This document shows positions 37,968 through 54,078 of a stretch of 64,000 nucleotides of DNA, piece by piece. Both the position numbers and the translations under genes were made by a program. Source of the DNA: an uncultured bacterium. Its GTDB lineage: Bacteria > Planctomycetota > SZUA-567 > JAKLDR01. The notes under the pieces were generated by a model that saw nothing but the letters and a program-made list of their open reading frames with translations, searched no databases and was not told where the DNA came from. The stretch's first letter is position 1; every line of letters begins with the position of its first letter. The stretch lies in contig CALGYR010000100.1 of the NCBI GenBank assembly GCA_937935355.1, positions 3,566 to 67,565 on the forward strand, given 5' to 3'.

Positions 37968-39632
37968 ATGTCAGATGGTGGTCCGACCGCCGATTCTAAC
38001 CGCCACGGCTCCGTCCGCGGCCGGGACGCCGTCAGGCGCGTGCTTCAGGACGCCGCCGCGCGCGACCCGAACAGCATCGATCCACAGAAGCTTCTGGGTG
38101 CGGTCCTGGCGGGCTCGGACGATCCGGGGGGCGATCTGGCCTGGTTGGTGGCCTACGACCTGGACAAGGGCGTCTGCGACGTGGGAGTCCCTCTGCTTCA
38201 CTTCGTGGCCACCGATAAGGATGCCCTGGCCGCCGCCGGCGCCGGCAAGGTCCGGAAGTCCGCCAGGACCGCCTTGCTCAAAGCCTTGCGCGACCGGCGG
38301 GTGCCCGATGACCGGAAGCTGCCTCTGGCGCCGCTTTTCGAGATGCTCGGGGGCCGGCTCTCGGAGGGCGACTATCGCTCCTTCTTCAGCGACTACGATG
38401 CCGTCGTTCGCAGCATAGCCAGACGGGTCGCCTCCTCCGTGATGGACACTCCGGAAGGCATCGAAGGCGTGTTCGAAGCGATCGGACTGATGGAGACGGG
38501 GCGCGGCGCCCCCTCCGAGCGGGACGTCGCCCAGCTTCTCCAGTTGCATGGGGACGCTCGCGAGGCCAACCCGGCCGCCGCGGCCGCGCTGCTGGGCGCT
38601 CTCGTGGCGCTCGAGATCGAGCACGGCCGGACGGGCGAGGAGACCGCCGCCATGGTCGACCTGCTGGCCAAGGACGCCTCCCCGCGCGCCGCGTGGTGCA
38701 TTGACGAGCTGGGCCGCTGGCCGGCGGCCGGCCCGATCGGCGCGCGGTGCCGGGCGCTCGCCGGCGCTCTCCGGGAAAAGGGCGTGCTCCCCGGGGGCGT
38801 GCGCCCGCCCGAGTTCGTGTCCGGCCTGTTCAGCGCCGTGGACGGGGCGGGCTCGCGCAACCTGACGATCATCACCAAGTCGGCGGACGGCGGCCTGGAT
38901 GGCCTGGTGTTGATGCCCAACGATCAGGTCGGCATCAAGGACGCCTGGTGCGCCTTCGGCGATGGGCGGGAGGCGGAGGCTCGCTTCAAGTCCGCCAAGG
39001 AGATCGTCGCGGTCCGGTGCTCCATGGAACTGGCGCGCGAGCTGGTGGCCGACGCCCTGGCGATCCACGAGCAGACCCGGCGGCCCCCGCCCGGCCGGTT
39101 CTTCATCTATCGTCCGGTCTTCGGCGCGGAGCCCATTGTCCCGCGCCGACGCAGTCCGGATCTGGGCGCCTATGGAGTCCCCGGGCCGGAGGCGGCGTCT
39201 CCCGTGTCCGAGCGCGAGGCCTTCGACATGCTCGACTGCCCCGGCTACCGCGAGCTGTGGTTCTGCTCCGACTTCGTCTATGAAACCATCTCGAAGATGA
39301 CGCGTGGAGGGCGACAGCGGCTCTCCGACATCCAGCTCGAGAAGCTCATGGTCGAGGTCCTCCCGCAAGAGAGGGAACGGCTGCTCTCGCGGCTGGCGGC
39401 GAACCTGGAGATTCTCGCTTTGGCCGGGAAGGCGTCCAGGCGGGAGAACCGGCTGGCTTTCCGGGTCTGGCGCGAGTTGTCGAAGGGCGACGCCAACCCG
39501 GCCGCCATCCCCTTCCTCCGGGCGCTGTGCCGGCGCACGGCGGAGATCGTGGGATATAACCTCGCCATGGGCTTCCGCAGCCAGGCTCAGGCCAACCGGG
39601 TGGTGGAGGAGATGGAGGAGGGGAGGGAGTAG
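37968..39632 (+). CDS. hypothetical protein (554 aa, no recognisable domain)
   Basis: RBS 'ggaggggaacaacgcg' before the ATG. Same strand as the rtcR-like gene, 85 bp upstream of it. Confidence 0.55.
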   Translation: MSDGGPTADSNRHGSVRGRDAVRRVLQDAAARDPNSIDPQKLLGAVLAGSDDPGGDLAWLVAYDLDKGVCDVGVPLLHFVATDKDALAAAGAGKVRKSARTALLKALRDRRVPDDRKLPLAPLFEMLGGRLSEGDYRSFFSDYDAVVRSIARRVASSVMDTPEGIEGVFEAIGLMETGRGAPSERDVAQLLQLHGDAREANPAAAAALLGALVALEIEHGRTGEETAAMVDLLAKDASPRAAWCIDELGRWPAAGPIGARCRALAGALREKGVLPGGVRPPEFVSGLFSAVDGAGSRNLTIITKSADGGLDGLVLMPNDQVGIKDAWCAFGDGREAEARFKSAKEIVAVRCSMELARELVADALAIHEQTRRPPPGRFFIYRPVFGAEPIVPRRRSPDLGAYGVPGPEAASPVSEREAFDMLDCPGYRELWFCSDFVYETISKMTRGGRQRLSDIQLEKLMVEVLPQERERLLSRLAANLEILALAGKASRRENRLAFRVWRELSKGDANPAAIPFLRALCRRTAEIVGYNLAMGFRSQAQANRVVEEMEEGRE

Positions 39633-39717: not shown

Positions 39718-41217
39718 ATGCGCGAAGTGCTTTTCGCCTGGATAGGCAATACGGACCTGAAGGCGGCGGCCGGCCAGACGGATGTTGGACTCGGCCCGAT
39801 CGGCCAGGCGGTCAAGGCGAAGAGCTACGACAAGCTCGTCCTAATCAGCAACTACCCCAAGGCGCAGGCCCAGGAGTACGCCAAGTGGCTATCCGGGCAG
39901 ACCAGGGCCGAGACGCTCGTCCTCCACGAGAAGCTGAGCAGCCCCACGAACTTCGGCGAGATCTACCTGGCGGCCAGGAAGGCGGTCGATGCTGAACTTG
40001 CCTCCGCCCCCGGCGGCGGGGCCCGCCCGACGTTTCACCTGAGCCCCGGCACTCCGGCCATGGCCGCGGTCTGGATCATTCTGGCCAAGGCGTTCTACGG
40101 CGCGGAACTCATCCAGTCGTCCCGCGAAGAGGGGGTCGTGACGGCCTCCGTGCCTTTCGACCTCTCCGCCGAGTTCATCCCCGACCTGCTGCGGAGGCGG
40201 GACGAGGCCATAGAGCGGCTCGCGAGCGCCACGCCGCCGGAGGCCCCGGAGTTCGCCGACATCGTCCACCGGTGCGAGGAGATGAAGCGCGTCGTGGCCA
40301 AGGCGCGCCGCGTGGCCGTCCACGGCGTGCCCGTGCTCATCGAGGGCGAGTCCGGGACCGGCAAGGAGCTCCTGGCCCGCGCCATCCACGACGCAAGTCC
40401 GCGGCGCGATAAGCCTTTCGTCGCCATAAACTGCGGGGCCATCCCGGCGGGCCTGGTGGAGTCGGAGCTTTTCGGCCACGTGAAGGGCGCCTTCAGCGGA
40501 GCCACGGCCGACCGCCAGGGCCGCCTTGAGGACGCCGATGGCGGCACCGTCTTCTTGGACGAGGTCGGCGAGCTTCCGGCCGACGCGCAGGTCAAGCTCC
40601 TGCGCGTGCTCGAGACCGGGGAGGTGACCCCGGTCGGCTCCGGCAAGACCGTCGAGCTCGACGTGCGGGTGCTCGCGGCGACCAACCGGGACCTCATGGC
40701 CGAGGTGACTGCCGGCCGCTTCCGCGAGGACCTCTTCTACCGGCTGGCGGTGGCGGTGCTGTTCCTGCCCCCGCTGCGGGCCAGGAAGGGCGACGTTGGC
40801 CTTCTGATCGACAGGCTGCTCGATCAGGTCGGGAAGGAGCTTCCCGAGGCCGGCAGCAAGAAGCTTTCTGCGGGCGCAAGAAAGCTTATGCTGGCCCACC
40901 CCTGGCGCGGCAACGTCCGGGAACTGCTCAACACTCTGCGGCGGGCGGCGATCTGGTCCGCCGGCGAGGTCATCGACGCCGACGAGATGCGCGAGGCGCT
41001 CCTGAGCGCCGGCGCCGCGCAGGGGACGGAGGTGCTCGGCCAGCCGCTCGGGAACGGCTTCAACCTTCCGGAAACGCTGGGTTTGGTCGCGCGGCACTAC
41101 CTGGAGCGGGCGCTCCAGGAGTCCGGTGGCAACAAGACCAAGGCGGCCGAGCTGCTCGGGCTGCCCAGCTACCAGACGCTGACCAACTGGCTCAAGCGGT
41201 ACGGGGTTGAGGGATGA
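39718..41217 (+). CDS. sigma-54-dependent transcriptional activator with N-terminal CARF-like (RtcR-type) sensor domain
   Basis: AAA+ sigma-54 domain: 'VLIEGESGTGKELLARAIH', GAFTGA-like 'GHVKGAFSGA', 'FREDLFYRL', and a C-terminal Fis HTH. The N-terminal 'HLSPGTPAMAAVWIILAKAFYGAELIQSS' aligns with E. coli RtcR 'HITTGTHVAQICWFLLAEARYLPARLIQSS'. Confidence 0.85.
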   Translation: MREVLFAWIGNTDLKAAAGQTDVGLGPIGQAVKAKSYDKLVLISNYPKAQAQEYAKWLSGQTRAETLVLHEKLSSPTNFGEIYLAARKAVDAELASAPGGGARPTFHLSPGTPAMAAVWIILAKAFYGAELIQSSREEGVVTASVPFDLSAEFIPDLLRRRDEAIERLASATPPEAPEFADIVHRCEEMKRVVAKARRVAVHGVPVLIEGESGTGKELLARAIHDASPRRDKPFVAINCGAIPAGLVESELFGHVKGAFSGATADRQGRLEDADGGTVFLDEVGELPADAQVKLLRVLETGEVTPVGSGKTVELDVRVLAATNRDLMAEVTAGRFREDLFYRLAVAVLFLPPLRARKGDVGLLIDRLLDQVGKELPEAGSKKLSAGARKLMLAHPWRGNVRELLNTLRRAAIWSAGEVIDADEMREALLSAGAAQGTEVLGQPLGNGFNLPETLGLVARHYLERALQESGGNKTKAAELLGLPSYQTLTNWLKRYGVEG

Positions 41218-41287: not shown

Positions 41288-43576
41288 ATGAGGAACAGAT
41301 CCTCGGAGGCGGACGCCAGGATCGTTATCGACGACCTGCTCCGTCAGGCCGGGTGGGACCCGGCCGACAAGTCCCAGGTGGTCACGGAGTTCCATGTGGC
41401 CGGTTCCCCCCAGACGATAGCCGAGAGCAATCCGGCCTACGGACAAGGTGCGGCAGTGCTGGACGGAAGTGCCGAGCCTATGTCGGAGGCTGGTCCGGGC
41501 AGAGGCGACTACCTGCTTCAGGACCGGCGGGGCCGGCCGCTGGCGGTCGTCGAGGCCAAGAGGGCTGGGACCAATCCTTACTCCGCCAAGCAGCAGACGC
41601 TGCCCTACGCCAAGAAGGTGGGCGCGCCCTTCATCTTCCTGACCAACGGCGAGCTCATCTACTTCTGGGACTACATGAACGATGACGCCCGGATGGTCAA
41701 CTCGTTCTACTCCCGGCGCGACCTGGAACGGCTGGTCGAGATGCGCGCCACCCGCAAGGCTATGGCGACGGTCGAGATCCCGGAGTACTACCTTCGCCAG
41801 GGCGAGAACCGGCAGGTTCGGCCCTACCAGCGCGCCGCCATGCAGGCGCTCGACCACGCCGTCGAGCTCGGCAAGCGCCGCTTCCTGATCGAGTTGCCAA
41901 CGGGCACCGGCAAGACCGATCTCACCTGCCTCTACCTCAAGCGGTTGATCCAGGCCGGCCGGGCCGAGCGCATCCTCTTCCTGGTGGACCGTGAGCAGTT
42001 GGCCAAGCAGGCTCTGGAGGCGTTCCAGGATGTGCTGAGCCAGCACGGTAGCTACTGGCTCCGTCCGGGGATGGCGAGACAGGAGCAGCAGATCACTGTC
42101 TGCCTGCTCCAGACCATGATCGGGCGCTACAAGGAATTCACCAGCGGCTACTTCGACGTGGTCGTGGCCGATGAAAGTCATCGCTCTATCTATGGCGCCT
42201 GGCAGACGGCACTTACGCATTTCGACGCGCTGCACATCGGCCTGACCGCCACGCCCTCGGCCTACATCGAGCGCAACACCTTCGACTTCTACCAGTGCCG
42301 GGATGGCAAGCCGGACTTCTCGTTCCCCATCCAGCAGGCCTTCAAGGAGGGCTACCTCGCTCCCTACCGGTTCGCGTCGGGCATTACCGTCATCCTGGCC
42401 GAGGGCGCCGAGGTCGGGGAGGAGGACTACGACCCGGCCGAGTTCGAGCGCAAGTGGACCAACGAGGACACCAACCGGAAGATGATGCAGGAGTTCGACC
42501 GGCTGGCCTGGGAGAACTACCGCGAGCTGGCGCCCGGCCAGAAGATCGTCCCGGGCAAGGCGGTGGTCTTCGCCATCACCAAGCACCACGCTGCCCGGCT
42601 GGCCCAGTACCTGAACGAACTGCACCCAGAGCTCAAGGGCCGCTACGCCGAGGTTATTACCAGCGACGTGGCCAATGCCGACGAGCTCATCCGCAAGTTC
42701 CGGCGCGAGGACTACCCGCAGGTGGCGGTCAGCGTCGGCATGCTCGACACCGGTTTCGACTGCCGGGAGATCCTGCATCTGGTGATGTGCCGCCGGGTGC
42801 GCAGCCCGATCCTCTACCAACAGATGCGTGGGCGGGGAACCCGTACCGCGCCGCACATCGGCAAGCAGGGCTTCGTCATTTACGACTTCTTCGGCAATCG
42901 CGAGTACTTCAACGACAGTGACGCCGATGCCTTCACCGGCGCTGGCGGCGGACACGCCTCCGGCGGGCGGCCCAAGCCTCCCAGCGAGCCCCGCGACTTG
43001 GTGGAATTGGGGCTCCAGGACGAATGGCTTCACGCTGTGGCCTATGTCGAGGTCGGACCGGAAGGCGAGCGCGTCGACAAGAAGGACTACATCACCAATT
43101 GGCAGAAGACGGTCCAGGGCTCGGCCAAGGACGACCCGGTTATCAGGAAGGTCCGGGACGGCGAGTCCCTGAGCGAGGGTGAGGAGAAGGAACTCGCCGA
43201 CCGGCTCAACCGGCCGGAGATGTATTTCAACGAAGAGAACCTCCGGAGAGCCTACCGCCAGCCAGGCGGCAACTTGATCGACTTCATCAGGGCGGCCCTC
43301 GGCAGCCTCAAGATCAAGAGCCGCGAGGAAGTGCTGACTGAGAACTTCCAGGCTTGGCTGGTGGCCAAGTCACTTACCGCGCAGCAGGCCCAGTACCTGG
43401 CGCTGCTCAAGAACCGCGGCATCGTTCGCGGCAAGATCGAGATGGAGGATCTCTTCAGCCCACCCCTCTCGATCCTCAACGCTGCAGAACTCGGCGTCGA
43501 ACTCTTCGGTGAGAAGGGCTTGAAACAGGTAGTTGCCGACCTTAATGAATCCGTGTTCGGCAAGAAGGGTGCATAG
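41288..43576 (+). CDS. hsdR: type I restriction enzyme R subunit (HsdR) with EcoEI_R_C-like C-terminus
   Basis: HSDR_N nuclease motif 'DYLL..RPLAVVEAKRAG', helicase motifs 'ELPTGTGKT' and 'DESH', and the C-terminal 'AWLVAKSLTAQQAQYLALL'. The alternative ATG is at 41249. Confidence 0.85.
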   Translation: MRNRSSEADARIVIDDLLRQAGWDPADKSQVVTEFHVAGSPQTIAESNPAYGQGAAVLDGSAEPMSEAGPGRGDYLLQDRRGRPLAVVEAKRAGTNPYSAKQQTLPYAKKVGAPFIFLTNGELIYFWDYMNDDARMVNSFYSRRDLERLVEMRATRKAMATVEIPEYYLRQGENRQVRPYQRAAMQALDHAVELGKRRFLIELPTGTGKTDLTCLYLKRLIQAGRAERILFLVDREQLAKQALEAFQDVLSQHGSYWLRPGMARQEQQITVCLLQTMIGRYKEFTSGYFDVVVADESHRSIYGAWQTALTHFDALHIGLTATPSAYIERNTFDFYQCRDGKPDFSFPIQQAFKEGYLAPYRFASGITVILAEGAEVGEEDYDPAEFERKWTNEDTNRKMMQEFDRLAWENYRELAPGQKIVPGKAVVFAITKHHAARLAQYLNELHPELKGRYAEVITSDVANADELIRKFRREDYPQVAVSVGMLDTGFDCREILHLVMCRRVRSPILYQQMRGRGTRTAPHIGKQGFVIYDFFGNREYFNDSDADAFTGAGGGHASGGRPKPPSEPRDLVELGLQDEWLHAVAYVEVGPEGERVDKKDYITNWQKTVQGSAKDDPVIRKVRDGESLSEGEEKELADRLNRPEMYFNEENLRRAYRQPGGNLIDFIRAALGSLKIKSREEVLTENFQAWLVAKSLTAQQAQYLALLKNRGIVRGKIEMEDLFSPPLSILNAAELGVELFGEKGLKQVVADLNESVFGKKGA

Positions 43577-43589
43577 GAGCAAGCCGGGG

Positions 43590-44102
43590 ATGACCAATCT
43601 GCCGACAGTAGACGTGGCCACCCTCTGGAATAGCCTTGAGTGGGTCCGGGGAGGTCTGCAGCGGACCCGGTCGGTGACCTGCCCGCTCTGCGTGACGGAG
43701 GCCCCGAAGGCGGCAGGGCTGTACCGCGTTGCTTGGATTTTGGATGAGGGCTGGGAACGCCTAAGCAAGGTTTTTCATGCTCGGGCAACCAAGAGGATCG
43801 TTGACCCGTCGGTTGGTTTCGCCGCCCTTCAGCCGCCCATTGTCCTTTCTATTGGGCGCACCACGAACATCTTCAGCAGAATCCGCCAGCACTTCGGTAA
43901 TAATCGGAACAGCAATCGCATTCTGAGCCGTCTTCGGCAGATCTCGCCTTCTGAGTGGACTGACGAAGACGTCCGAGGTGCGGCTGCCAAGAGCCTGCAA
44001 GTTGAATGGGCGGTGGTGCCTAACTGGGTGGAGCGCTGCCTGCTGGAGAGCTACGGCAAGGCGATCCAGTCCCCCATCCTCGACCTCGACGCGGAGCACT
44101 AG
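43590..44102 (+). CDS. GIY-YIG-like nuclease domain protein
   Basis: 'GLYRVAW' (GIY-like), 'VLSIGRTTNIFSRIRQH' (YIG plus the conserved Arg), and 'ESYG' with a Glu. The RBS is 'aggagcaagccgggg'. GC is locally lower. Confidence 0.5.
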   Translation: MTNLPTVDVATLWNSLEWVRGGLQRTRSVTCPLCVTEAPKAAGLYRVAWILDEGWERLSKVFHARATKRIVDPSVGFAALQPPIVLSIGRTTNIFSRIRQHFGNNRNSNRILSRLRQISPSEWTDEDVRGAAAKSLQVEWAVVPNWVERCLLESYGKAIQSPILDLDAEH

Positions 44103-44105
44103 TCC

Positions 44106-45776
44106 ATGAACCAGGATCTAAGACGCAAGCTCAACCGGATTACCGACATCCTCTGGGCCGGGGGGGTCACGAACCCGGTCACCTACATCGAACAACTTTC
44201 CTACCTGATCTACCTGAAGATGCTCGACGAGGAGGAGTCCAGCCGGGAACTCAAGGCCCGGTTGACCGGCGGGCAGGCGAACGGCAACGGCAATGGCCGG
44301 CTACTCTTCGCCAAGCAGGCCGAGCGCTACCGCTGGACCAAGTGGCGTTTCAAGAGCGGGGTGGAACTCCGCGACTTCGTCCGGGACGAGGTCTTCCCCT
44401 ACATGGCCTCCCTGGTGAAGGAGGAGCCGCAGATCGCGGAGTACTTCCGGGACGCCGTGCTCGAGATCGTGGACGCCAACGTCCTCAAGCAGGTGGTGGA
44501 CGAGATCGACAGCATCGACTTCGCGAAGCTCGGCACGGACGTCAAGGGTGACATCTTCGAGTACCTGCTCACCCACCTGGGCCAGTCGGCGCTCAACGGC
44601 CAGTTCCGCACGCCGCGTCAGATCCGCACCATGATGGTCGAAATGGTCGCCCCGGACCTCGGCGATACGGTCTACGATCCGGCCGCCGGCACCGGCGGCT
44701 TTCTGATCGATGCCGTGGAGCATATCCTGGCCAAATACTCCACCGAGCCGCAGGAGGTGCCCATCTACGGCGAGGAGTGGCTGGAGAGCCGGGGCCAGAC
44801 GCTTGCGGAGGCCAGGAAGGCCGTCCCGGCGCTCCAAACCTACCGCAAGGGGCCGGGCGAGCGCGTTCCCGACTGGAAGCTGCTCGAAGGGGCCATTTAC
44901 GGGATCGACGTGTCGCGGCAGATGATGCGGATCGCCATGATGAACCTGGTGCTCCACGGCATCCGCAAGGCTAACGTCAAGCGGGCCAATACGCTCTCCG
45001 ACATGGGCGGCCTGACCGAGGACGACCTGGCCCGCCGGTACAAGGTCATCCTCTCGAATCCACCCTTTGCCGGCGTGCTCCCCAAGGAGTCCGTGAGGAA
45101 GGACCTGCCCACCAACTCCAAGAAGAGCGAGCTGCTCTTCCTGGGAGTCATGATGGAAGCGCTCGCCCCGGGCGGGCGCTGCGCCGTGGTGGTGCCCGAG
45201 GGGCTGCTCTTCGGGTCCACCTCCGCTCACACTGAGCTTCGTCGGAAGTTGCTCGACGACTACCAACTCCTGGCCGTGGTCTCCCTCCCCGCCGGCGTCT
45301 TCAAGCCTTATGCCGGGGTCAAGACCGGCGTTCTGGTCTTCCGTAAGCCGGAAAGCGCTACGAAGGACAAGAAGAAGCCCGAGGGCAAGGTCTGGTTCTA
45401 CGAGATCCGGAACGACGGCTACGACCCGGACAAGATCCAGGGCGGCGGCCGGCCGGAGACGCCGGCGAAGAACGACATCCCCGACCTGCTCGCCCAGTGG
45501 GCGGAGTACCGGAAGTCCGGCTTCAGGAAGCCTCCGGGCGTGGAGGCCGGGACGCTCCTGGAGGCCGGCAGCCCCGAGCCGCGCTCGTGGTGGGCGCCGC
45601 TTAAGGCCATCGCCGAGAACGAGTTCAACCTGGCCGCCGGGCGGTACAAGCCGCAGGTGGCGGAGAAGGCTCCGGAGGATGACCCGGCGGAACTGATCCG
45701 CGAGACGGCCGAGGTCGAGCGGGAGATCCTTGGCGGGTTGGAGAAGCTGCTGAAGGATGTGGAGGCTGCCCAGTGA
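44106..45776 (+). CDS. hsdM: type I restriction-modification system methyltransferase subunit (HsdM)
   Basis: HsdM_N-like N-terminus, AdoMet motif 'VYDPAAGTGGFL', and the catalytic 'SNPPFAG' motif. Confidence 0.9.
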   Translation: MNQDLRRKLNRITDILWAGGVTNPVTYIEQLSYLIYLKMLDEEESSRELKARLTGGQANGNGNGRLLFAKQAERYRWTKWRFKSGVELRDFVRDEVFPYMASLVKEEPQIAEYFRDAVLEIVDANVLKQVVDEIDSIDFAKLGTDVKGDIFEYLLTHLGQSALNGQFRTPRQIRTMMVEMVAPDLGDTVYDPAAGTGGFLIDAVEHILAKYSTEPQEVPIYGEEWLESRGQTLAEARKAVPALQTYRKGPGERVPDWKLLEGAIYGIDVSRQMMRIAMMNLVLHGIRKANVKRANTLSDMGGLTEDDLARRYKVILSNPPFAGVLPKESVRKDLPTNSKKSELLFLGVMMEALAPGGRCAVVVPEGLLFGSTSAHTELRRKLLDDYQLLAVVSLPAGVFKPYAGVKTGVLVFRKPESATKDKKKPEGKVWFYEIRNDGYDPDKIQGGGRPETPAKNDIPDLLAQWAEYRKSGFRKPPGVEAGTLLEAGSPEPRSWWAPLKAIAENEFNLAAGRYKPQVAEKAPEDDPAELIRETAEVEREILGGLEKLLKDVEAAQ

Positions 45777-47041
45777 AGTGGCACTCGCCAAGGCTATCCA
45801 GACTTGCCCAGATCATCCGGGGCGTCTCGTTCGACAGCTCCGAGGCTAGCCCCACGCCAATTGCGGGGCATGTCCCTATCCTGCGCGCCGGCAACATCGG
45901 CCGCGACCTGGACACAGAGAATGACCTGATCTGGGTCCCGGCAGCCAGGGTGTCAGACGAACAAAGGCTCAAGGCAGGTGACATCGCGATTGCCATGTCG
46001 TCAGGAAGCTCCAATATCGTCGGGAAGACAGCACAGTTGAACCAAGCGTGGGACGGCTCCGTGGGGGCCTTCTGCGCGATCATCCGCCCGTTGGAGACTG
46101 TGAGCGCCGCATATCTCGGGTACTGGCTTCTTGGTCCCACCTTCACCGCATGGCGGCAATCGCAGTGTATGGGGCTGAACATCAAGAACTTGCGGAAGGC
46201 GGAGATCGAGTGCCTGGAAATCCCGCTCCCTCCTCCCTCCGAGCAGCACCGGATCGTGGAGATCCTCGACCAGGCCGACGCCCTGCGCCGGAAGCGCGCC
46301 GAGGCCGACGCCAAGGCCGGGCGCATCCTGCCGGCGCTCTTCTACAAGATGTTCGGGGATCCGGCGACGAATCCGAAGGGGTGGCCGGTGGTGCCTATCA
46401 GCAAGCTGGTTGAACCCATCGAACGGAGAGACCCCTCCGTTCAACCCGAAGAGCCTTTCACCTACATCGATATCGCGAGTGTGAATGGCCAGTTAGGCGT
46501 CATCACCGACACCAAAGCCTTGATGGGCGCAGAAGCTCCCAGCAGGGCGCGGCAGATTGTCAGGGCGAACGATGCAATCATCTCGACCGTCCGCCCATAC
46601 CTTCGAGCGACGGCATTAGTGCCTACGCAACATGACAACCAGATTTGCAGCACCGGATTCTGCGTCTTGAGGGCAAAGACAGGGGTGGGATTTGGCTTCT
46701 TGTATGCTCTTTCCCGCTTGCAGTGGTTCACAGACCAGCTTAACGCACGTGCCCGTGGAGCGTCATATCCGGCCGTGACGGATGCAGACGTTCTCAACCT
46801 GCGCGTGCCGCGACAGACCGACCGGGAAACACTTCAGATATTTGATCGCCAGGTGCTCGATGTCCTTGTGCAACAGGACAAGCGACGTGGAGTTGCATGC
46901 AGACTTGGTGTCTTGTTCGAGACGCTTCTCCACCGCGCTTTCACCGGCGACCTAATGGCCGGTTGGCGCGAGGCGCACATGAATGAACTCCAAATAGAGA
47001 TGGAATCACAGGCCAGAATGCTGAAGGGGGGCGATGAATGA
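45773..47041 (+). CDS. hsdS: type I restriction-modification specificity subunit (HsdS), two TRDs
   Basis: A 4 bp overlap with hsdM. The conserved central and C-terminal repeats are 'LEIPLPPPSEQHRIVEILDQADALRRKR' and 'LRVPRQTDRETLQIFDRQVLDV'. Confidence 0.85.
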   Translation: MKWHSPRLSRLAQIIRGVSFDSSEASPTPIAGHVPILRAGNIGRDLDTENDLIWVPAARVSDEQRLKAGDIAIAMSSGSSNIVGKTAQLNQAWDGSVGAFCAIIRPLETVSAAYLGYWLLGPTFTAWRQSQCMGLNIKNLRKAEIECLEIPLPPPSEQHRIVEILDQADALRRKRAEADAKAGRILPALFYKMFGDPATNPKGWPVVPISKLVEPIERRDPSVQPEEPFTYIDIASVNGQLGVITDTKALMGAEAPSRARQIVRANDAIISTVRPYLRATALVPTQHDNQICSTGFCVLRAKTGVGFGFLYALSRLQWFTDQLNARARGASYPAVTDADVLNLRVPRQTDRETLQIFDRQVLDVLVQQDKRRGVACRLGVLFETLLHRAFTGDLMAGWREAHMNELQIEMESQARMLKGGDE

Positions 47042-47673
47042 TCAGGATCAGTCTGAAGGGCCTAGCCAAATTCATGACCGGCAACTCCGCCAAGCAGCGC
47101 AAAGTTCTCAGGGACTACAAATACCCCGATCCAGAGGGGCATGCGCAGGCAACCTACTACCGAGAGGCCAGAGACTTCATCGTGTCCCATCACCAGAGTG
47201 GGCACAGCCCCCTCTGGCTCCCGGAGAGGGCCGCAATTCTCGACACGCTGGCATCTCAGTCGGCAGGGCAAACCAAAGTCCGCCTTCGCAATAATGCCCG
47301 GGCACTTCGAGAGTACGCGAACCACTTTGGGAAGCGGACATTCAAGGTGCTGCGCGATGTGAATCTCGGCATCGAACACGCCGGCGTTCTGGTAACCTTC
47401 GCTCCTGACCTCCACATCAAGGAAGGCGAGAAGGAGAAGATCATCAGACTTGACTTCACCAAGGAACCTCCTGACGACAAGACCGTCAAGATCATCACTC
47501 AGGCGATGTTTGAGGCGCAGGCAACTCTCGGGATGGGCTTGCCAAGTGCCGCAGTGCTCTACCTGGATGTGCCCCGTGGCCAAACGCACAAGGGTGCCAG
47601 GGCGGGGTCTCGGATGCGCACTGAGATCGAAGCGGCCTGCAAGAACATCTCTGCTCTGTGGGATGGAATCTAG
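47038..47673 (+). CDS. hypothetical protein (211 aa) translationally coupled to hsdS
   Basis: ATGA overlap with the hsdS stop. No recognisable domain. GC is lower. Confidence 0.5.
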   Translation: MIRISLKGLAKFMTGNSAKQRKVLRDYKYPDPEGHAQATYYREARDFIVSHHQSGHSPLWLPERAAILDTLASQSAGQTKVRLRNNARALREYANHFGKRTFKVLRDVNLGIEHAGVLVTFAPDLHIKEGEKEKIIRLDFTKEPPDDKTVKIITQAMFEAQATLGMGLPSAAVLYLDVPRGQTHKGARAGSRMRTEIEAACKNISALWDGI

Positions 47674-47682
47674 GGGAACAAG

Positions 47683-49404
47683 ATGCTCACCGCCCTCCAA
47701 CTCGCCCGCTTCAAGGCCTTTGGCGACCTCCAGCGCGTCCCGATCAAGCCGATCACCCTGATCTACGGCCCGAACAGCGCCGGGAAGTCGAGCCTGATCC
47801 ACAGCCTGATCCTGGCCCGCCAGGCGGCCGAGACCGGCGAACTGGACGTCCACCGCACCCCGGTCGGCGGCGACTCGGTGGACCTGGGCGGCTTCCGGCA
47901 ATACGTCCACCGGCGCAACGCCGGCGAGCGGGTCGAGTGGGCCATGGAGCTCGATACCAGCCGTTTCACTGGGCGCCTGGCTACGCTTCTGGCGGCGGCC
48001 AAGGTGGTTACAGCTCGCGTCGAGGTCGGCTTGGCTCACGAGGAGAAGAAGCGCAAGCGTTTCGTCCTCGATCCCCGGACCGACAAGGCAATCGAGATCG
48101 AGGAACCCACCGGCGAGATGGTGGCCGTGGGGCAACCCGCAATCCAGAGCTTCAAATTGGAGGCCGACTCCACGCCACTCCTGGAGATGAGCCGCCGGCC
48201 GAGCGGCGGCTTCCGGCTGGACAGACTGCACCATGGGCATGCCGTGTTCCGGGAGGTGATCAAGGCCATAGTGGCAGCCTCCACGACGACGGAGTCGTTG
48301 CAGCCGTCCGACTACGAAGGTCTGGACAAGGCAATAGACGCCCTTGTCCCCGACATAGTCGCCACCTGCCGCGGTTTACTACCGGATGGTCTGGCGAAAG
48401 CCGAAGGGCCGGATTCGGAGAAGCCTCCCACGTTGTTTCCAATCAGCAAGGGCCGCCGGCAGGAGGACTTGGCCGCCGCAGTCCGCTTCTTCGTGCCCCG
48501 TACTATTGAAGAACTGCTCAAGGGCGTGAGCCAGACGGTGGGCTTCGAGCTCGACCGATTGCATTATCTCGGACCGCTGCGCTCCTACCCGCCGCGACAC
48601 TTGGCATTTGCCCAGCACCACGATCCCAACTGGATCGCGGGTGGTGGATATGCATGGGACGCGGTGCGGCGGGACGGCAGAGTGCGCGCTCAAGTGAACG
48701 AGTGGTTGGGTGCCAAGAACCGGCTGCAGACGCCTTACGAACTTACCCTGCGTGAACTGGTGGGCGTGGATCAACTGGAGACGCCGATATCCGAAGGCAT
48801 CGAGAATCATCTGGGTCGCGAGGCTGAAGCAAGCAAAGGCCCTGTTGAGGTTGCCGATGATCTAGAGATTAGCAGGTTGCCGTTCCCTGACTTGCTGGAT
48901 GAGCTCCTAACGGCCATCAATTCGGCCGACATCGAGAAACTAGACGAACTTATTCTGAAGGACTGTCGATCCAATACGGTTGTCAGCCACCGCGACGTTG
49001 GCATCGGCATCAGCCAAGTGCTCCCGGTGCTCGTCAGCGCCTACGCCTCCCAGGACCGCCTGGTGGCCATCGAGCAACCGGAGATCCATCTGCATCCCAA
49101 GCTCCAGGCCGAGCTGGGCGACGTGTTTCTGGAGTCCGCCCTCGGCGAGCGCCGGAACACCTTCCTGCTCGAGACCCACAGCGAGCACGTCCTGCTCCGC
49201 ATCATGAAGCGCATGCGCCAGATGGCCGACGGCAGCCTGCCCGAGGGCCTGCCCAAGGTGCGCCCGGAGGATGTGGCGGTGCTCTACGTCGAGCCGGACG
49301 GCTCCCGGAGCATCGTCCGGGAGATGCCGCTCAACGAGCGCGGCGACCTGGTCAAAGCCTGGCCCGGCGGGTTCTTCGAAGAAGGCCTCGACGAGATGTT
49401 CTGA
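47683..49404 (+). CDS. AAA_21/OLD-family ABC-type ATPase (RloA/PtuA/AriA-like)
   Basis: Walker A 'IYGPNSAGKSSL' and D-loop/Walker B region 'LVAIEQPEIHLHP...LLETHSEHVL'. No C-terminal Toprim domain was seen. Confidence 0.75.
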   Translation: MLTALQLARFKAFGDLQRVPIKPITLIYGPNSAGKSSLIHSLILARQAAETGELDVHRTPVGGDSVDLGGFRQYVHRRNAGERVEWAMELDTSRFTGRLATLLAAAKVVTARVEVGLAHEEKKRKRFVLDPRTDKAIEIEEPTGEMVAVGQPAIQSFKLEADSTPLLEMSRRPSGGFRLDRLHHGHAVFREVIKAIVAASTTTESLQPSDYEGLDKAIDALVPDIVATCRGLLPDGLAKAEGPDSEKPPTLFPISKGRRQEDLAAAVRFFVPRTIEELLKGVSQTVGFELDRLHYLGPLRSYPPRHLAFAQHHDPNWIAGGGYAWDAVRRDGRVRAQVNEWLGAKNRLQTPYELTLRELVGVDQLETPISEGIENHLGREAEASKGPVEVADDLEISRLPFPDLLDELLTAINSADIEKLDELILKDCRSNTVVSHRDVGIGISQVLPVLVSAYASQDRLVAIEQPEIHLHPKLQAELGDVFLESALGERRNTFLLETHSEHVLLRIMKRMRQMADGSLPEGLPKVRPEDVAVLYVEPDGSRSIVREMPLNERGDLVKAWPGGFFEEGLDEMF

Positions 49405-50345
49405 TGGCTCTGCTTGCCGAATACGCTCTGACCCCGGACGTCTTCGACTCGGCTTCCTACGCCGGCGAGGAGATCGGCGATCTGCACCTGTCCCATCTCA
49501 AGGAGGCGCTCCTGGACGACGGGGTTGTCCGGAGCCTGCGTAACGGCGAGTGGCTGGCGCAGTTTAGCGGTGACGGTCGCATGTGGCACCGCCGCGGCAA
49601 GGAGCTACTTCACAAGCTGGACAAGCAAGGACGGCTGAGGGCCTGCGCCCCCGTGGGCAACGCCTGCCCGGCAGTTGACTGTGACTGGTGCCATGAGGCC
49701 TTGGGTTCTCACGCCCGTCTCCCGCTTGGCGGGATCGTGGTGACAGACTGTGTCGCGTCAGCCTTCGTGGGGAACCCACTGGTGGCCTCGGTCACGAAGC
49801 TCCCGGCAGCACAATGGTGGAGCGAGCGAAGCCCATCGGCCCGTCTGGTACGGACGAAAGTCGAGTACCAGCGGCACCTTGGCCTGCTTCTGGAGTGTTC
49901 GCGGTCCATTGCCTTCATCGACGCACATCTGGATCCCAGCCAAGGCCGCTACAAGGACTTCGTTGCCATCCTCGCCGGCATGGCGGGCATGAAGCGGGTG
50001 CCGCGGATAGAACTGCATCGCGTATGCCACTCGCAGTTGCGCGGAGAGAAGCCCGACAAGAGGCCGGATCCCGAGCTCAGGCCACTGTTCTTGCGAGAGC
50101 TGTCCTCCCCGTTGAAGGCGGCCGGAATGTCCATCGAGGCGTTCTTCTGGGACGACTTCCATGATCGCCACATCGTCAGCAATCTTGCGGTCCTGCATCT
50201 GGGCAATGGCCTGGATACCACCACCCATCCAAGCGCGATGACTACGTGGACTAGGCTAGGTCGACGTGAAGCCGACGATGTGCGGCGTGAGTTCGATCCT
50301 GCAAGCGGTCGCCACACGCTGGTAGAACGCTTCCCCATTCCATGA
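49404..50345 (+). CDS. hypothetical protein (313 aa), partner of the ATPase
   Basis: A 1 nt TGATG overlap with the ATPase stop. No recognisable domain. Confidence 0.5.
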   Translation: MALLAEYALTPDVFDSASYAGEEIGDLHLSHLKEALLDDGVVRSLRNGEWLAQFSGDGRMWHRRGKELLHKLDKQGRLRACAPVGNACPAVDCDWCHEALGSHARLPLGGIVVTDCVASAFVGNPLVASVTKLPAAQWWSERSPSARLVRTKVEYQRHLGLLLECSRSIAFIDAHLDPSQGRYKDFVAILAGMAGMKRVPRIELHRVCHSQLRGEKPDKRPDPELRPLFLRELSSPLKAAGMSIEAFFWDDFHDRHIVSNLAVLHLGNGLDTTTHPSAMTTWTRLGRREADDVRREFDPASGRHTLVERFPIP

Positions 50346-50866: not shown

Positions 50867-51685
50867 TCACAAGTCCTCCGCCGCGTACACCAACTCCTTC
50901 TGGAGCTTGGTGAGGGCTCTCTGGGCCTGGCTCCGCAGCTGCCAGAGACGGTCCAGATCGCCGGGGTCGCTCACCGCCGCCTGGGCCAGTTCGGCGCTGG
51001 CGCGCAGGAGCGCCAGGGCGGTGCTCTGCAATGCCGGCCCCCCCTTCAGCTTCCGGGTGGTGTTCACGATCCCGTCGATGACGGGCTGCCAGTCAGCGCG
51101 GGGTTTGCTTGCTTTTGTGGGGGCCGGCTGCGCCAGTTCCGGTTCCAGCGTCGTGACGACTTGGTCGCGGCGCTTGGCGGTCGCGTACTCTTCCCTTAAC
51201 CTGGCGCGGATACCGGGGCCGAAGGTCATGGGGTAGGTGGCAAGCCAGCCGTCGTAGACTATCCTGCTCTTGAACGGCAACAGCACCGTTCGCACCATTA
51301 CAGGCATGGGCCCCAGGCTGAACAAGTCCTCGAAGCTCTCGGACAGGCCCAAAACTCCGTAGGCGCGCGAACCGCCGAGCAGGATGGCGTGGTTCTTCAG
51401 AAACCGGAAGACATAGAAGTCGCCGGCCACGAAGCGTTTCCACTTCTGTACGATCTCCAGTTCGTCCGCCGGCAGTTTGTCCGGATTGTCCCTGACGTAG
51501 GCGTCGATCAGGTCCGGTTCCTTCCACAATGCCTCCCTTGTCCGGTACTTATCGTCTTTGGGCAACGCGGCAAACGCCTCCGCGGACGTGGTATCCGGGA
51601 GCAGGCCGCGCTGTCTGCCGACGTAGGACTGAAGTCCCCATATCAAGCGATAGAACAGGGCGGCTTCTTCCTTCTCCAACTTCAC
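50867..51685 (-). CDS. hypothetical protein (about 272 aa)
   Basis: The listed 411 aa ORF has a GC-artefact N-terminus. The real start is probably the GTG at 51685, overlapping the upstream stop (GTGA). Confidence 0.45.
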   Translation of the reverse strand: MKLEKEEAALFYRLIWGLQSYVGRQRGLLPDTTSAEAFAALPKDDKYRTREALWKEPDLIDAYVRDNPDKLPADELEIVQKWKRFVAGDFYVFRFLKNHAILLGGSRAYGVLGLSESFEDLFSLGPMPVMVRTVLLPFKSRIVYDGWLATYPMTFGPGIRARLREEYATAKRRDQVVTTLEPELAQPAPTKASKPRADWQPVIDGIVNTTRKLKGGPALQSTALALLRASAELAQAAVSDPGDLDRLWQLRSQAQRALTKLQKELVYAAEDL

Positions 51686-52078
51686 GTCCTTCCCCTGCCA
51701 GGCCGGCCGGCTGCGTGGTCCCCGGCTTCGCCCTCTCCGGCGTGGCCCCGCCGGAGCCCTTCGAGCGCCTCGATTCTCGCCCGGGTCTCCTCCGACAGGT
51801 TCTCCACATGTTCCGGGCCCAGGAGGTCGTGCTGCTTCAACTGGAACAGCTTGGCGAAGAGCGTCGACCGGCTCCAGTCGTCGAAGCAGTCGGCGACGAT
51901 GCGGTTGGAGTCCTTGAGGTGCCGGTAGAGCCGGCGGTATTTGTCGGCTTCGGACTGCCCGGCGGCCGCGAGGATGTCCATCGACTGCCGGTTGATGCGC
52001 CCGAACAGGGCGGCGAGCAGCTCCTCCTGGGCCTTCCGCATGTACTTCCAGTCGCGCTCGGGGATGTCTCTGGACATG
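51682..52078 (-). CDS. hypothetical protein (132 aa)
   Basis: Starts at 'MSRDIPERDWKYMRKAQEEL'. Coupled to its flanking genes by overlaps. Confidence 0.45.
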
Positions 52079-52079
52079 C

Positions 52080-52607
52080 TTAGCCTCCCGTTCTCTCCGC
52101 ACCCCGGCCGCCCCTCGCCCGGGTCCACTCCCGGGATGGCGGGGGCTCCGCTATGGGCGGCTCGATGCCTGCCGGGAACCATCCGCCGCGGGTCATTTGC
52201 AGCTCCTTGTAGGTTTTGAACATGAAGGCATGTTTGAGGACTTCGGCCGGAGGCCTGGGGTGCTTCATGTTCTCCCGCCAGTGCTTCTTCTCCAGTGTGC
52301 CGAAGACCAGATAGTCGCCGCCGATCAAGTCGGGGTCCAACTCCACGAACAGGTCGGTGAGCAGGCGTTCGATCTCGTGCTTGTGGGCGGCCAACAGGTC
52401 GCAGCCCCGGCAGTAGCGGCAGGTGTAGTTGAGGGCGACCATCCGCTTCTCGCCGACGTCGATCAGCAGGGGAAGCTTGCGCTGTCCGGTCTTGCGGTGG
52501 CAGACAGGGCAGATCGAGAGCCGCACGTCGGGATAGGGGTTCATGATGAACCCGTATCTGCGGGGCGGCTCCCCTGCACTCGGATCCCAGGCCTTGGCCA
52601 TATCCAT
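52080..52607 (-). CDS. hypothetical zinc-ribbon protein
   Basis: 'CPVCHRK...CRYCRGC', a four-Cys arrangement. Confidence 0.5.
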   Translation of the reverse strand: MDMAKAWDPSAGEPPRRYGFIMNPYPDVRLSICPVCHRKTGQRKLPLLIDVGEKRMVALNYTCRYCRGCDLLAAHKHEIERLLTDLFVELDPDLIGGDYLVFGTLEKKHWRENMKHPRPPAEVLKHAFMFKTYKELQMTRGGWFPAGIEPPIAEPPPSREWTRARGGRGAERTGG

Positions 52608-52623
52608 ATGTTGTCTCCTGTCG

Positions 52624-53370
52624 CTACTTGCGTTGTTCTTCGGCGCCCCCCGGTCCCCGGTCCTCCATGTTCACCTCAAGGCCGTTCTCCCGGCACCACT
52701 CGAGAATGGCCGCTCGGGTCGCCTCATTCTCGAAATCGTGCCACTTCTGGAGCAGGCCGTGGCGCTCGAGCAGGTCCTTGTAGCGGCCGTAGGCGCCGCG
52801 CCGGCTGAAAATCCGGCCGACCTCCCCGGCGAGCTGCGGCGCGTGCCGGTTCACGAAGTTCCCGACCAGGTCGGCGCCCAGGTCCAGGTCGTTCTTGTGA
52901 GGGATCGAGAGGTAGTCTTCCCCGCCCGCGTCCTCGGGCATCTCGTCCATGTCCGCCATCTCGGAGGAGAAGAAGGTCTGCCCCGTCTTCCGGTGGATGC
53001 AGGCGGAGTGATCGCCGTACGGTGCAGAACCCACGAAGTCGAACGCCATTTCGACTTCGGAAAACTTGATGGCCATGCGCTTCTCCTTTGACAGGTTGTC
53101 CGGCTTGGAAACTCCAGCGTCCGGGGGCTGCTGCGCGGCTGCGTCTCTGTTCAACTCGTACTGGTAGAGCTCCTCCCACATCTCGTTCTGGGCAAGCCAG
53201 ACGGGGTCGGCGTTCCTGGCGACGAATTCGTCGACGGGCATCCCGTCGATGGTCGGCGGACGCCTTACCCGCTTCTGCTTGCCGTTGACGAAGATGGTCA
53301 TGAACTCGAGCCGGCGCCGCCGTTTCTCGGCCTTCTCCTTGGCGGTCAGCTTGCGCTTGCGGCGTGACAC
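52624..53370 (-). CDS. hypothetical protein with Lys/Arg-rich N-terminus
   Basis: 'MSRRKRKLTAKEKAEKRRRRLEF'. No recognisable domain. Confidence 0.5.
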   Translation of the reverse strand: MSRRKRKLTAKEKAEKRRRRLEFMTIFVNGKQKRVRRPPTIDGMPVDEFVARNADPVWLAQNEMWEELYQYELNRDAAAQQPPDAGVSKPDNLSKEKRMAIKFSEVEMAFDFVGSAPYGDHSACIHRKTGQTFFSSEMADMDEMPEDAGGEDYLSIPHKNDLDLGADLVGNFVNRHAPQLAGEVGRIFSRRGAYGRYKDLLERHGLLQKWHDFENEATRAAILEWCRENGLEVNMEDRGPGGAEEQRK

Positions 53371-53379
53371 GGGGTGCCG

Positions 53380-54078
53380 TCAGCCGTTCTTGGGCCAGGC
53401 TTCCAAGCGTTCAAGCCACGTCCGGAAGAGCGGGCACTGAGCTCTGATGGCCTCCAACCCTATCTCCAGGACGGCTAAGGTCCCCATGACGGGCTTCTCA
53501 TAGCCGGGCAGCAGCGATTCCACGCGCTTCGACGGGGCCGTCTGAGGGGAATCGTTCACCTCCTCGGGGCTGGCGAAATCGTCCCGTATAGCCTGGAACG
53601 CCGGAGCCAGATCGGGGTGTCCGATTCCGCCGGCGAACCGGGAGCAGTCGCTGAAGAGCAGCCCCTCGAACTCGTGCATCATCACATAGGGAATGAACCG
53701 GCCCGGGTTGAAATCCTCGCCCATCCCTCTACAGACATCCGCCAGCAGGGCGTTCTCGACGGTTGAAGCTTTCTGTGGAAACGGCAAGCGGCCCGCATCG
53801 GCCCGACCGGGCCAGGCCCTGGGACCGCTGCAGGGCAGTCCGTAGTAGTCCACCATGGTCGTTACCAGGCATTCCCCATCCTGCTTGAGGTGGTTCCGAA
53901 TGTCGCCCCGTACTTCCCCCCAGCCGCGGATGCCACCGCGGCGTTGGCGCTGCCGTGCGTTGCCGAGGAGCCGGGCGCCGACCGCCGTGTAGCCATGCTC
54001 GTAAAGGTGGGCCGCGAGCACCTGAGTGACGAAGGATTCCTCCGTCTCGCCTTCCACGTGGACCAGCAATCTAGCCAT
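53380..54078 (-). CDS. DUF4276 family protein (Toprim-like)
   Basis: N-terminal 'MARLLVHVEGETEESFV' resembles the DUF4276/Toprim 'VEGxxE' signature. An 8 bp overlap with the upstream ATPase. Confidence 0.65.
   Translation of the reverse strand: MARLLVHVEGETEESFVTQVLAAHLYEHGYTAVGARLLGNARQRQRRGGIRGWGEVRGDIRNHLKQDGECLVTTMVDYYGLPCSGPRAWPGRADAGRLPFPQKASTVENALLADVCRGMGEDFNPGRFIPYVMMHEFEGLLFSDCSRFAGGIGHPDLAPAFQAIRDDFASPEEVNDSPQTAPSKRVESLLPGYEKPVMGTLAVLEIGLEAIRAQCPLFRTWLERLEAWPKNG

Follow-up and report, generated by a model that had tools for sequence, protein, structure and literature searches.

The question raised by this locus is why a small gene carrying the motifs of a nuclease should be located between hsdR and hsdM of a type I restriction-modification operon. 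The locus lies in 64,000 nucleotides (nt) of DNA from an uncultured bacterium of the Planctomycetota (GenBank assembly GCA_937935355.1, contig CALGYR010000100.1, positions 3,566 to 67,565, forward strand), the whole of which is referred to here as the window, and the gene, designated X170, is an open reading frame (ORF) of 170 amino acids (aa). An earlier note, made from the sequence alone, had read X170 as a GIY-YIG-like nuclease gene acquired later than its neighbours and had offered three roles for its product: a homing-type nuclease, an Rlo-type accessory defence effector or an anti-restriction factor. We have investigated these possibilities by homology searches, structure prediction and inspection of the same junction in orthologous loci. 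X170 is a real gene encoding a divergent member of the GIY-YIG superfamily which arrived in the operon as an ORF-only insertion, and a role as an embedded defence nuclease is tentatively favoured.

X170 is a conserved gene

43590-44102 (+), including the stop codon: X170, 170-aa ORF for a putative divergent GIY-YIG-fold nuclease (reading of the ORF and sequence, homologues, structural model)

X170 begins with an ATG at 43590 and terminates with a TAG at 44100-44102, coordinates and strand being those given in the earlier note, and is present in a single copy in the window. The ATG is located 13 nt past the hsdR stop codon (43574-43576) and the gene ends 3 nt before the hsdM ATG (44106). The start at 43590 is preferred over an upstream TTG at 43533 because homologues begin at the same methionine, with the sequence MTNLP, MANLP or MARLP. 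The identical gene, together with its neighbours, is found in public gene calls on three independent contigs or assemblies, including DAIPLX010000026.1 (GCA_036768975.1).

Relatives were sought by a word-indexed search of 5.8 billion proteins and by an exhaustive profile search of 1.84 billion cluster representatives. The former returned three full-length relatives at 50-55% identity and the latter 43 proteins at E ≤ 1e-3, 29 of them at E ≤ 1e-10, the stronger matches being mostly 148-208 aa in length and many of the weaker ones being fragments or longer repetitive proteins. Overall, the homologues are 26-56% identical to X170 and occur in hosts of ∼35-68% GC. In a 27-sequence alignment G89, R97, R149 and E169 are invariant, while W13, W18, G43, Y45, L86, H101, N109, R110, W146, E153, Y155 and D165 are conserved in at least 90% of sequences; the conserved core of a 39-sequence alignment largely overlaps this set, and across the family alignments 11-14 columns are invariant. 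Publicly, members of this rare family carry the name 'hypothetical protein' only, and the family is captured by no Pfam, NCBIfam or PHROGs model, PADLOC providing a weak match to UzuA alone.

X170 is more than a chance ORF because homologues in hosts of very different GC content keep the invariant motif columns. Long chance ORFs are common in GC-rich windows and one relative of X170 is frameshifted, as would be expected of a spurious or decaying reading frame. Against this stand full-length homologues with invariant motif residues in hosts of 35-68% GC, a confident structure prediction and identical genes called in three independent assemblies, leaving a negligible probability that X170 is a spurious ORF or a decaying pseudogene. 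The spurious-ORF reading is already refuted by conservation, and the combination that the earlier note had named as its sign, no profile match together with no conservation, was not found. X170 is a real, conserved gene.

X170 is a divergent GIY-YIG protein

The motifs described in the earlier note are present, GLYRV at residues 43-47 and SIGRT at residues 87-91, the latter followed by R97, H101 and N109. Their positions in the gene, and those of the other elements considered below, are as follows.

43716-43724 (+): codons of G43-L44-Y45, the 'GIY' strand; G43 and Y45 are invariant or nearly so, and HMMER aligns them to GCY of UvrC and GIY of I-TevI
43737-43838 (+): residues 50-83, an insertion specific to this family, placed between the GIY and YIG strands and contributing two short extra beta-strands (modelled secondary structure, alignments)
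43845-43892 (+): residues 86-101, LSIGRT (YIG-like, Ser87 for Tyr) and the 'arginine helix' with R97 and H101 (PF01541 match, conservation, UvrC and I-TevI alignment)
44025-44084 (+): residues 146-165, the 'glutamate helix' (W146, R149, E153, Y155) and D165 (helix 146-160 of the model, conservation)

The profile check that had been proposed, a search against PF01541, gave a divided result. X170 itself scores 15.4 bits (E 0.023) over residues 88-120 only, below the gathering threshold of 22.6 bits; 22 of the 27 family members are nevertheless matched (best E 2.3e-4), making PF01541 by far the commonest Pfam match. When the insertion (residues 51-83) was excised from the family alignment before the profile search, PF01541 was matched by 20 of 21 members (best E 9.7e-5), and six of the eight PDB sequences found with the excised profile were UvrC or I-TevI. 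In this core alignment, G-l-Y is placed on GCY or GIY, s-I-G on YVG, R97 on the catalytic arginine and H101 on the tyrosine of UvrC and the histidine of I-TevI. X170 has no NCBIfam match and no meaningful PHROG match. TniQ (PF06527, E 0.0027, residues 10-51) was rejected as a chance match, being found in one of 27 family members. The grappling-hook protein GhpA, ribosomal P0 and the other PDB matches of the full-length profile were repeat or low-score artefacts in the insertion region and were lost once the insertion was excised.

An AlphaFold2 model of X170 built from 39 sequences has a mean pLDDT (predicted local distance difference test) of 89.9 and a pTM (predicted template modelling score) of 0.85. 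Along the chain, the secondary-structure elements run as in the canonical fold, with the GIY strand at residues 43-49, the YIG strand at 84-91, the arginine helix at 94-101, the linker strand at 136-142 and the glutamate helix at 146-160. Compared with PDB using Foldseek, the model retrieved three structures of the UvrC N-terminal domain first (probability 0.97-0.98, template modelling score 0.62-0.64 per target) and R.Eco29kI next (probability 0.66), with nothing else credible, and six of the seven top fold matches are GIY-YIG structures. The best matches in BFVD, a collection of predicted viral structures, include several phage endonucleases, some of them annotated as GIY-YIG or intron-associated. 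The core GIY-YIG fold is present in the model, an assignment resting on agreement between methods, the individual E-values being weak.

The predicted active site combines conserved and substituted positions. X170 has a GIY motif with the conserved tyrosine (G43-L-Y45), Y45 being at least 90% conserved in the family and invariant in the core alignment. The YIG tyrosine is lacking (L-S87-I-G89), its position being occupied by serine or threonine in nearly all members, and the glycine, G89, is invariant. In the first helix, an invariant R97 is followed four residues on by H101, conserved in at least 90% of members, and both align with the corresponding arginine and tyrosine or histidine of UvrC and I-TevI. 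E153, invariant or nearly so, is carried on helix 146-160 and D165 follows 12 residues downstream; no alignment with a solved enzyme spans that part, and by topology and spacing we take E153 and D165 to be the equivalents of E76 and N88 of UvrC. On the same basis, E153 is probably the metal ligand, and D165 would stand where the canonical asparagine is expected, 12 residues from the glutamate. The distance from Tyr45 to Ser87 is 42 positions (41 residues between), compared with ∼10 between the GIY and YIG tyrosines of UvrC and I-TevI. In Hpy188I the YIG tyrosine is naturally replaced (KIG) and the enzyme is active, and the GIY tyrosine has been described as general base (PMC3045582). Because of the precedent provided by that structure, the active site of X170 is plausibly functional.

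UvrC provides both the best fold match and the best PDB sequence match of X170 through its N-terminal GIY-YIG (URI) domain (PDB 1YD6, 1YD3, 1YD4, 1YCZ). The two proteins have in common the signature G-x-Y … x-I/V-G-K/R-t/a-x-n-L-x-x-R-l-x-x-H/Y-F, with the same spacing from G to R (8 residues) and from R to H/Y (4 residues). Unlike UvrC, a repair enzyme of ∼600 aa, X170 is free-standing at 170 aa and lacks UvrB-interaction, EndoV-like and helix-hairpin-helix domains. Its differences from canonical GIY-YIG proteins are an N-terminal extension of 42 residues, a hairpin insertion of 34 residues, Ser/Thr for the YIG tyrosine and, judged by spacing, probably Asp165 for the asparagine. R.Hpy188I and R.Eco29kI resemble X170 more closely in architecture, being small single chains with N-terminal and intra-hairpin additions to the GIY-YIG core which bind DNA and mediate dimerisation, and R.Hpy188I also resembles it in the missing YIG tyrosine. 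However, no sequence relationship of X170 to these enzymes is detectable beyond the core. Nor is X170 accompanied by a cognate type II methyltransferase; its neighbour is the type I HsdM, specificity being set by HsdS, and many family members have no methylase neighbour.

Combined, several lines of evidence, each individually weak, converge to support firmly that X170 is a divergent GIY-YIG-superfamily protein. The assignment made in the earlier note therefore holds, through the family-wide PF01541 matches, the fold matches to UvrC and R.Eco29kI and the conserved Tyr, Arg, His and Glu.

Insertion of X170 at the hsdR-hsdM junction

The genes flanking X170 and the two candidate ribosome-binding sites at its ends are listed here.

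41288-43576 (+): hsdR, 762 aa, with ResIII, helicase C and EcoEI_R_C domains (domain matches); upstream flank
43575-43579 (+): AGGAG, Shine-Dalgarno-like site overlapping the hsdR stop codon TAG (43574-43576), 10 nt before the X170 ATG (sequence reading)
44093-44096 (+): GGAG in the last codons of X170 (…GAC GCG GAG CAC TAG), 9 nt before the hsdM ATG (sequence reading)
44106-45776 (+): hsdM, 556 aa, with HsdM_N and N6_Mtase domains (domain matches); downstream flank
45773-47041 (+): hsdS, 422 aa, overlapping the end of hsdM by 4 nt (family matches)

Eighty orthologous loci, with HsdM at 53-85% identity, were fetched from GTDB representative genomes, 74 of which cover both sides of the hsdR-hsdM junction. 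The hosts belong to the Planctomycetota, Desulfobacterota, Nitrospirota, Verrucomicrobiota, Bacteroidota, Acidobacteriota, Firmicutes and other phyla; orthologues at this level of identity in so many phyla show that the type I cassette is widely exchanged. In 60 of the 74 loci the junction is empty, hsdR and hsdM being at most 40 nt and typically 9-12 nt apart, which bears out the earlier view that X170 splits a canonical pair. Three loci have a spacer of 41-150 nt and the remaining 11 contain an inserted ORF. A search of all six-frame ORFs with the family profile detected an X-family gene in only one of the 74 loci, L056 (Gemmatales bacterium KatS3mg105), the gene thus being absent from 73 of the 74 orthologous loci in the presence-absence comparison that had been called for. 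X170 is not a subunit found in all orthologous systems, and its standing outside the conserved type I cassette is firmly supported.

The junction sequence is conserved across the sampled phyla and reveals the footprint of the insertion. A typical empty junction reads …GCA TAA GGAGCAGCG ATG AAC CAG GAT…, also written …AAGAAGGTCGCATAAGGAGCAGCGATGAACCAGGATTTGCGCAG…, whereas the window reads …GCA TAG GAGCAAGCC/GGGG ATG…X170…GCG GAG CAC TAG TCC/ATG AAC CAG GAT. Comparison of the two indicates that AGGAG at 43575-43579 corresponds to the 'TAAGGAGCAGCG-ATG' ribosome-binding site of hsdM in empty loci. The strong ribosome-binding site credited to X170 in the earlier note does exist, 10 nt before the ATG, but occupies the position of the site that serves hsdM in uninterrupted loci; GGAG at 44093-44096 is likely the replacement for hsdM. 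No promoter-like or terminator-like site was found between X170 and its operon neighbours.

The X-family gene of L056 encodes a protein ∼45-46% identical to X170 and is located at exactly the same junction, built in the same way, with the gene behind the old hsdM ribosome-binding position and a new GGAG before hsdM. The two cassettes are not close relatives, L056 ranking 38th of 69 among the neighbours of the window for hsdM and 36th of 65 for hsdR. Since the occupied cassettes are non-sister, two independent gains at one junction are a more parsimonious explanation than one gain and dozens of precise losses thereafter. Co-conversion of the flanks between the window and L056 was looked for and none was detected, similarity being no higher near the junction than elsewhere.

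Composition differs from that of the flanks in the same direction in both loci. X170 has a GC content of 0.606 and a GC content at third codon positions (GC3) of 0.731, compared with 0.639 and 0.865 for hsdR and 0.654 and 0.905 for hsdM; in L056 the GC3 of the inserted gene is 0.62 against 0.72 and 0.83 in its flanks. The AT-rich codon usage reported previously is clear in GC3 but modest in total GC, and GC3 is equally low in hsdS (0.72) and in the next ORF (0.72), the region from ∼41 to 56 kb having a lower GC content (0.63-0.65) than the rest of the window (∼0.69). Later acquisition, as had been proposed, is borne out by presence and absence over the 74 loci, by the ORF-only footprint and by GC3 below both flanks in the window and in L056.

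The ten other occupied junctions contain at least six kinds of unrelated small ORF. These are a four-helix-bundle protein (TIGR02436) in L019, L023, L054 and L085, a GxxExxY protein (TIGR04256) in L021 and L067, an IS200-family transposase-like protein in L065, a DUF559 protein in L087 and small ORFs without a family match in L081 and L062, which resemble an ORF6N domain and a HicB antitoxin, respectively. Insertion between hsdR and hsdM/S is a recognised arrangement, termed 'R-MS' (PMC12255300). There is firm support for X170 having entered, as an ORF alone, a junction that has repeatedly taken up small genes. A transposon origin, including one as a miniature inverted-repeat transposable element (MITE), was rejected, as no terminal inverted repeats or target duplications flank X170, and no X remnants were found in the intermediate-length spacers of L044, L091 and L092.

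Two further observations concern the other inserts. Those encoding the four-helix-bundle protein are flanked by stretches translating as 'IDDRRLPIDDW…' and '…INRQSSIGD', and their ends look, by eye, like inverted repeats at the DNA level. L044 (2465-2593) appears to keep a palindromic remnant of this type without an ORF, similar to a MITE or to the stems of ribosomal RNA intervening sequences.

X170 homologues in other genomic contexts

Genomic contexts were readable for ∼15 distinct family members. One homologue (P0002) has the same 10-nt and 3-nt gene spacing as X170. Another (P0019, in L103) begins 2 nt past hsdS in a different type I operon, with the order hsdR, hsdM, Fic, hsdS, X, ApeA-HEPN, a 240-aa gene, DUF3825, an ABC ATPase and a 291-aa gene. 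In L105 the family member (P0017) follows a 961-aa N6_Mtase gene and a 289-aa gene and precedes a homologue of the 240-aa protein, in an island that also carries ParE, a reverse transcriptase and E2/JAB/ThiF genes. A 239-240-aa protein without a Pfam domain is therefore found beside X in two otherwise different islands (L103:9208-9930 and L105:7666-8385), the two copies being 54% identical, and may be the partner of X in that sub-clade. Other neighbourhoods contain Z1 and TIR genes, an integrase with EACC1 and DUF3825, Nmad3, a WYL/WCX regulator or a T5orf172 gene.

A distant clade from low-GC genomes (L009:3625-5909, L012:3188-5805 and L013:2775-5352) is always associated with a Cys-phosphatase-like protein, bearing the signature HC(S/T)AG(I/V)SRSG, and with a predicted membrane protein of 70-74 aa; a metallo-beta-lactamase-fold protein is present in two of the three loci. 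This gene set may constitute a separate multi-gene system. An all-against-all comparison of neighbours gave clade-specific partners only, most of the partners tested being without a Pfam domain, and a universal partner gene was rejected. In L018 (31-551) the family copy is split over two reading frames, either because it is a pseudogene or because of an error in the assembly.

Searches by tblastn and by pattern of 50,697 phage records, 72,556 plasmid records and IMG/VR contigs gave no member of the family. A profile made from the close alignment detected no member among GTDB representative genomes, L056 having surfaced via hsdM only. Literature searches on GIY-YIG proteins with hsdR and hsdM, and on GxxExxY or four-helix-bundle proteins in restriction operons, yielded no prior description of the X170 gene.

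Possible roles of X170

We tentatively favour the reading, plausible though short of probable, that X170 is a compact, stand-alone GIY-YIG DNA endonuclease, predicted to be catalytically competent, which was acquired horizontally and is embedded in the type I operon as an independent defence-island nuclease; the nuclease activity, substrate and defence role we infer are these. In this reading X170 is not a subunit of the type I enzyme but would have entered the operon as an ORF alone, directly before the start codon of hsdM, taking over the ribosome-binding position that serves hsdM in uninterrupted loci and supplying a new one for hsdM, and is probably co-transcribed with hsdR, hsdM and hsdS. 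Hydrolysis would proceed with one metal ion, as in other GIY-YIG enzymes, Tyr45 acting as the general base, Arg97 and His101 contributing from the arginine helix and Glu153 anchoring Mg2+. The 42 N-terminal residues and the 34-residue insertion may serve DNA binding or dimerisation, as the embellishments of GIY-YIG restriction enzymes do. Working alongside the restriction system and travelling with it, the enzyme would cleave invading DNA.

This defence role is favoured because the neighbourhoods of the X family are mostly of the defence type and because sub-clades have acquired recurrent partner genes. It is also favoured because embedding predicts defence function well, genes embedded in type I restriction-modification, BREX, DISARM and Hma systems often turning out to be defence genes (bioRxiv 10.1101/2024.01.29.577857), and because the three single-gene anti-phage systems Uzume, PD-T4-3 and PD-Lambda-1 show GIY-YIG homology (bioRxiv 10.1101/2024.10.26.620412). 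Like X170, the proteins of these three systems stand alone, and the UzuA model weakly matches the YIG-Arg region of X170; the match is not significant (E 0.025, 26 residues), and length and architecture differ. Genes embedded in restriction-modification systems, such as PrrC in EcoprrI, the Campylobacter rlo genes and the HEC and PDC candidates of PADLOC, resemble X170 in being nested among hsd genes, co-oriented, tightly packed, present in some orthologues only and often nucleases. X170 itself belongs by sequence to none of these groups and is not among the PADLOC-DB v2 models; it represents a family for which no model exists, although the superfamily and the kind of setting are both known. 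With respect to the three roles offered earlier, an Rlo-type embedded accessory nuclease fits best, a homing-type nuclease is a live rival and an anti-restriction factor is disfavoured.

Several observations weigh against this interpretation. Every GIY-YIG sequence match lies below curated thresholds and the Foldseek E-values reach only ∼0.06, while the YIG tyrosine is replaced by Ser/Thr and the canonical asparagine by Asp. X170, a protein of 170 aa lacking a reader domain, its own cognate methylase and a neighbouring immunity gene, would need some way of sparing host DNA. Small ORFs that occur in multiple contexts, such as the four-helix-bundle, GxxExxY, DUF559 and IS200-like ORFs, are regarded as selfish hitch-hikers, and because the other occupants of the same junction are mostly of this type, X170 may by analogy be a hitch-hiker rather than a defence gene. 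The presence of X at a single junction in two cassettes that are not sisters is also accounted for more directly by homing. Finally, X170 does not correspond to any system model of PADLOC-DB v2.0.0 and has no significant match there to a known or candidate defence family, the UzuA match at E 0.025 over 26 residues standing alone and no other model being listed at E ≤ 1.

A selfish, free-standing endonuclease of the homing type, the main rival reading, is possible, though on the present evidence we consider it unlikely. X170 would recognise and cut the empty hsdR-hsdM junction of related type I cassettes and repair from the occupied allele would copy the ORF in, with no benefit to the host, X170 thereby parasitising an operon that circulates horizontally through many phyla. 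GIY-YIG is a classic homing-endonuclease fold, and X170 has its catalytic fold in common with I-TevI (1MK0, matched here), I-BmoI and the Seg proteins of phage T4; like the seg genes it is free-standing between conserved genes, sporadic and compositionally distinct. An ORF-only insertion in a short spacer between conserved genes, with no transposon ends and the operon intact, fits this model, as do the conserved junction sequence, the two homologues at exactly the same junction in non-sister cassettes, for which two gains are more parsimonious, and the third homologue, P0002, with the same spacing. The sporadic distribution, the GC3 below that of the flanks, the frameshifted copy in L018 and the other small nuclease-type ORFs filling the same slot in other loci point the same way. 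Unlike homing endonucleases, however, X170 has no linker or C-terminal DNA-binding domain, ending right after the glutamate helix (…DAEH*), and no NUMOD, IENR1 or helix-turn-helix match was found in it; a separate DNA-binding domain is what GIY-YIG homing enzymes use (PMC3664794). The family was also not found in the phage, plasmid and IMG/VR collections searched, the flanks of the two occupied loci bear no co-conversion signal, and most members occur in different yet defence-type contexts, some with recurrent partners, which a pure homing element does not predict.

An association with the restriction enzyme itself, in the manner of PrrC, is improbable for X170. Here a nuclease kept latent by binding to HsdRMS would be set free once a phage anti-restriction protein had put the type I enzyme out of action, providing a backup, abortive defence, and the problem of self-toxicity would be solved. 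X has been found inside a type I operon at no fewer than three independent loci (the window, L056 and L103), its tight packing between operon genes is consistent with translational coupling, and PrrC embedded in EcoprrI is a precedent (PMC12707154; bioRxiv 10.1101/2024.01.29.577857). However, most family members are not beside any type I system, 60 of the 74 orthologous systems do without X, and its position varies between type I operons, being at the hsdR-hsdM junction in two and after hsdS in one. PrrC and RloC combine an ABC ATPase with an anticodon nuclease, to which X170 is unrelated in sequence and fold, and X170 has no ATPase or sensor domain. Such a guard role could apply to those members that lie within type I operons, but it cannot be general for the family. 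A function in anti-restriction, restriction alleviation or regulation of the operon, in place of nuclease activity, is suggested only by small size and position between R and M and is highly improbable, given that the full GIY-YIG catalytic set is conserved apart from the YIG tyrosine, that the protein has neither the strongly acidic composition of a DNA mimic nor a helix-turn-helix match, and that the gene is chromosomal, inside the host's own operon, with no copy in the mobile-element and viral collections searched.

A broader proposition, which is conceivable but which we regard as doubtful, is that the X family consists of minimal bacterial GIY-YIG endonucleases that specifically colonise conserved junctions in horizontally circulating defence operons, in this case the hsdR-hsdM spacer of a type I cassette present in many phyla, as homing-type parasites of immune systems, or else of single-gene defence nucleases that discriminate self without a reader domain or methylase. 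The finding is a modest one, as accessory nucleases embedded in type I systems are already well documented and current understanding is not contradicted. The GIY-YIG superfamily gains an unannotated and structurally distinctive family, and a site- or modification-specific nuclease of 170 residues could serve as a useful enzyme. The interest is moderate and lies mainly in the series of loci, in which one conserved junction in 74 species is empty in 60, occupied by the X nuclease in one, in addition to the window, and by unrelated small ORFs in ten. Such a series makes it directly testable whether genes embedded in restriction operons are defence add-ons or selfish hitch-hikers, and whether a nuclease drives its own insertion at such junctions.

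The type I cassette and surrounding island

Directly upstream of hsdR is a gene for an RtcR-like sigma-54-dependent activator (39718-41217, +), found in the same position in at least 40 of loci L019-L098 and thus conserved there across phyla. Its best NCBIfam match is RtcR (E 6e-99, below the equivalog cut-off), it contains sigma-54 AAA+ and HTH_8 domains, and its N-terminal region looks CARF-like by eye, which suggests that the type I cassette is under signal-dependent, sigma-54-driven control. Just upstream of this regulator, a 554-aa ORF (37968-39632, +) is matched by no Pfam or NCBIfam family, and none of the 80 loci carries a homologue of it.

Downstream of hsdS are an ABC ATPase with AAA_15/AAA_21 and DUF3696 domains (47683-49404, +), matched by PADLOC to PDC-M55A, NsnB and HEC-03B at ∼1e-40, and a 313-aa protein without a domain match (49404-50345, +). 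Among the orthologous loci, 51 have the ATPase downstream of hsdS and ∼20 have the 313-aa protein. The conserved unit therefore runs from the regulator through hsdR, hsdM and hsdS to a Menshen-like ATPase and an effector. A 211-aa ORF (47038-47673, +; GC3 0.72) separates hsdS from the ATPase; it has no significant family match (best PHROGs E 0.031), and homologues are absent from the 80 orthologous loci. This ORF occupies a second variable slot, the stretch between the hsdM end and the ATPase start varying from 1.2 to 4.5 kb among loci.

Several ORFs without a domain match follow at 50867-53370, and a gene pair at ∼53380-55288 (-) encodes a DUF4276 protein and an AAA_15/AAA_21 (SMC_N) ATPase. 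Together with the restriction-modification cassette, these genes form a defence island of ∼15 kb with a GC content of 0.63-0.65 against 0.69 in the surrounding DNA.

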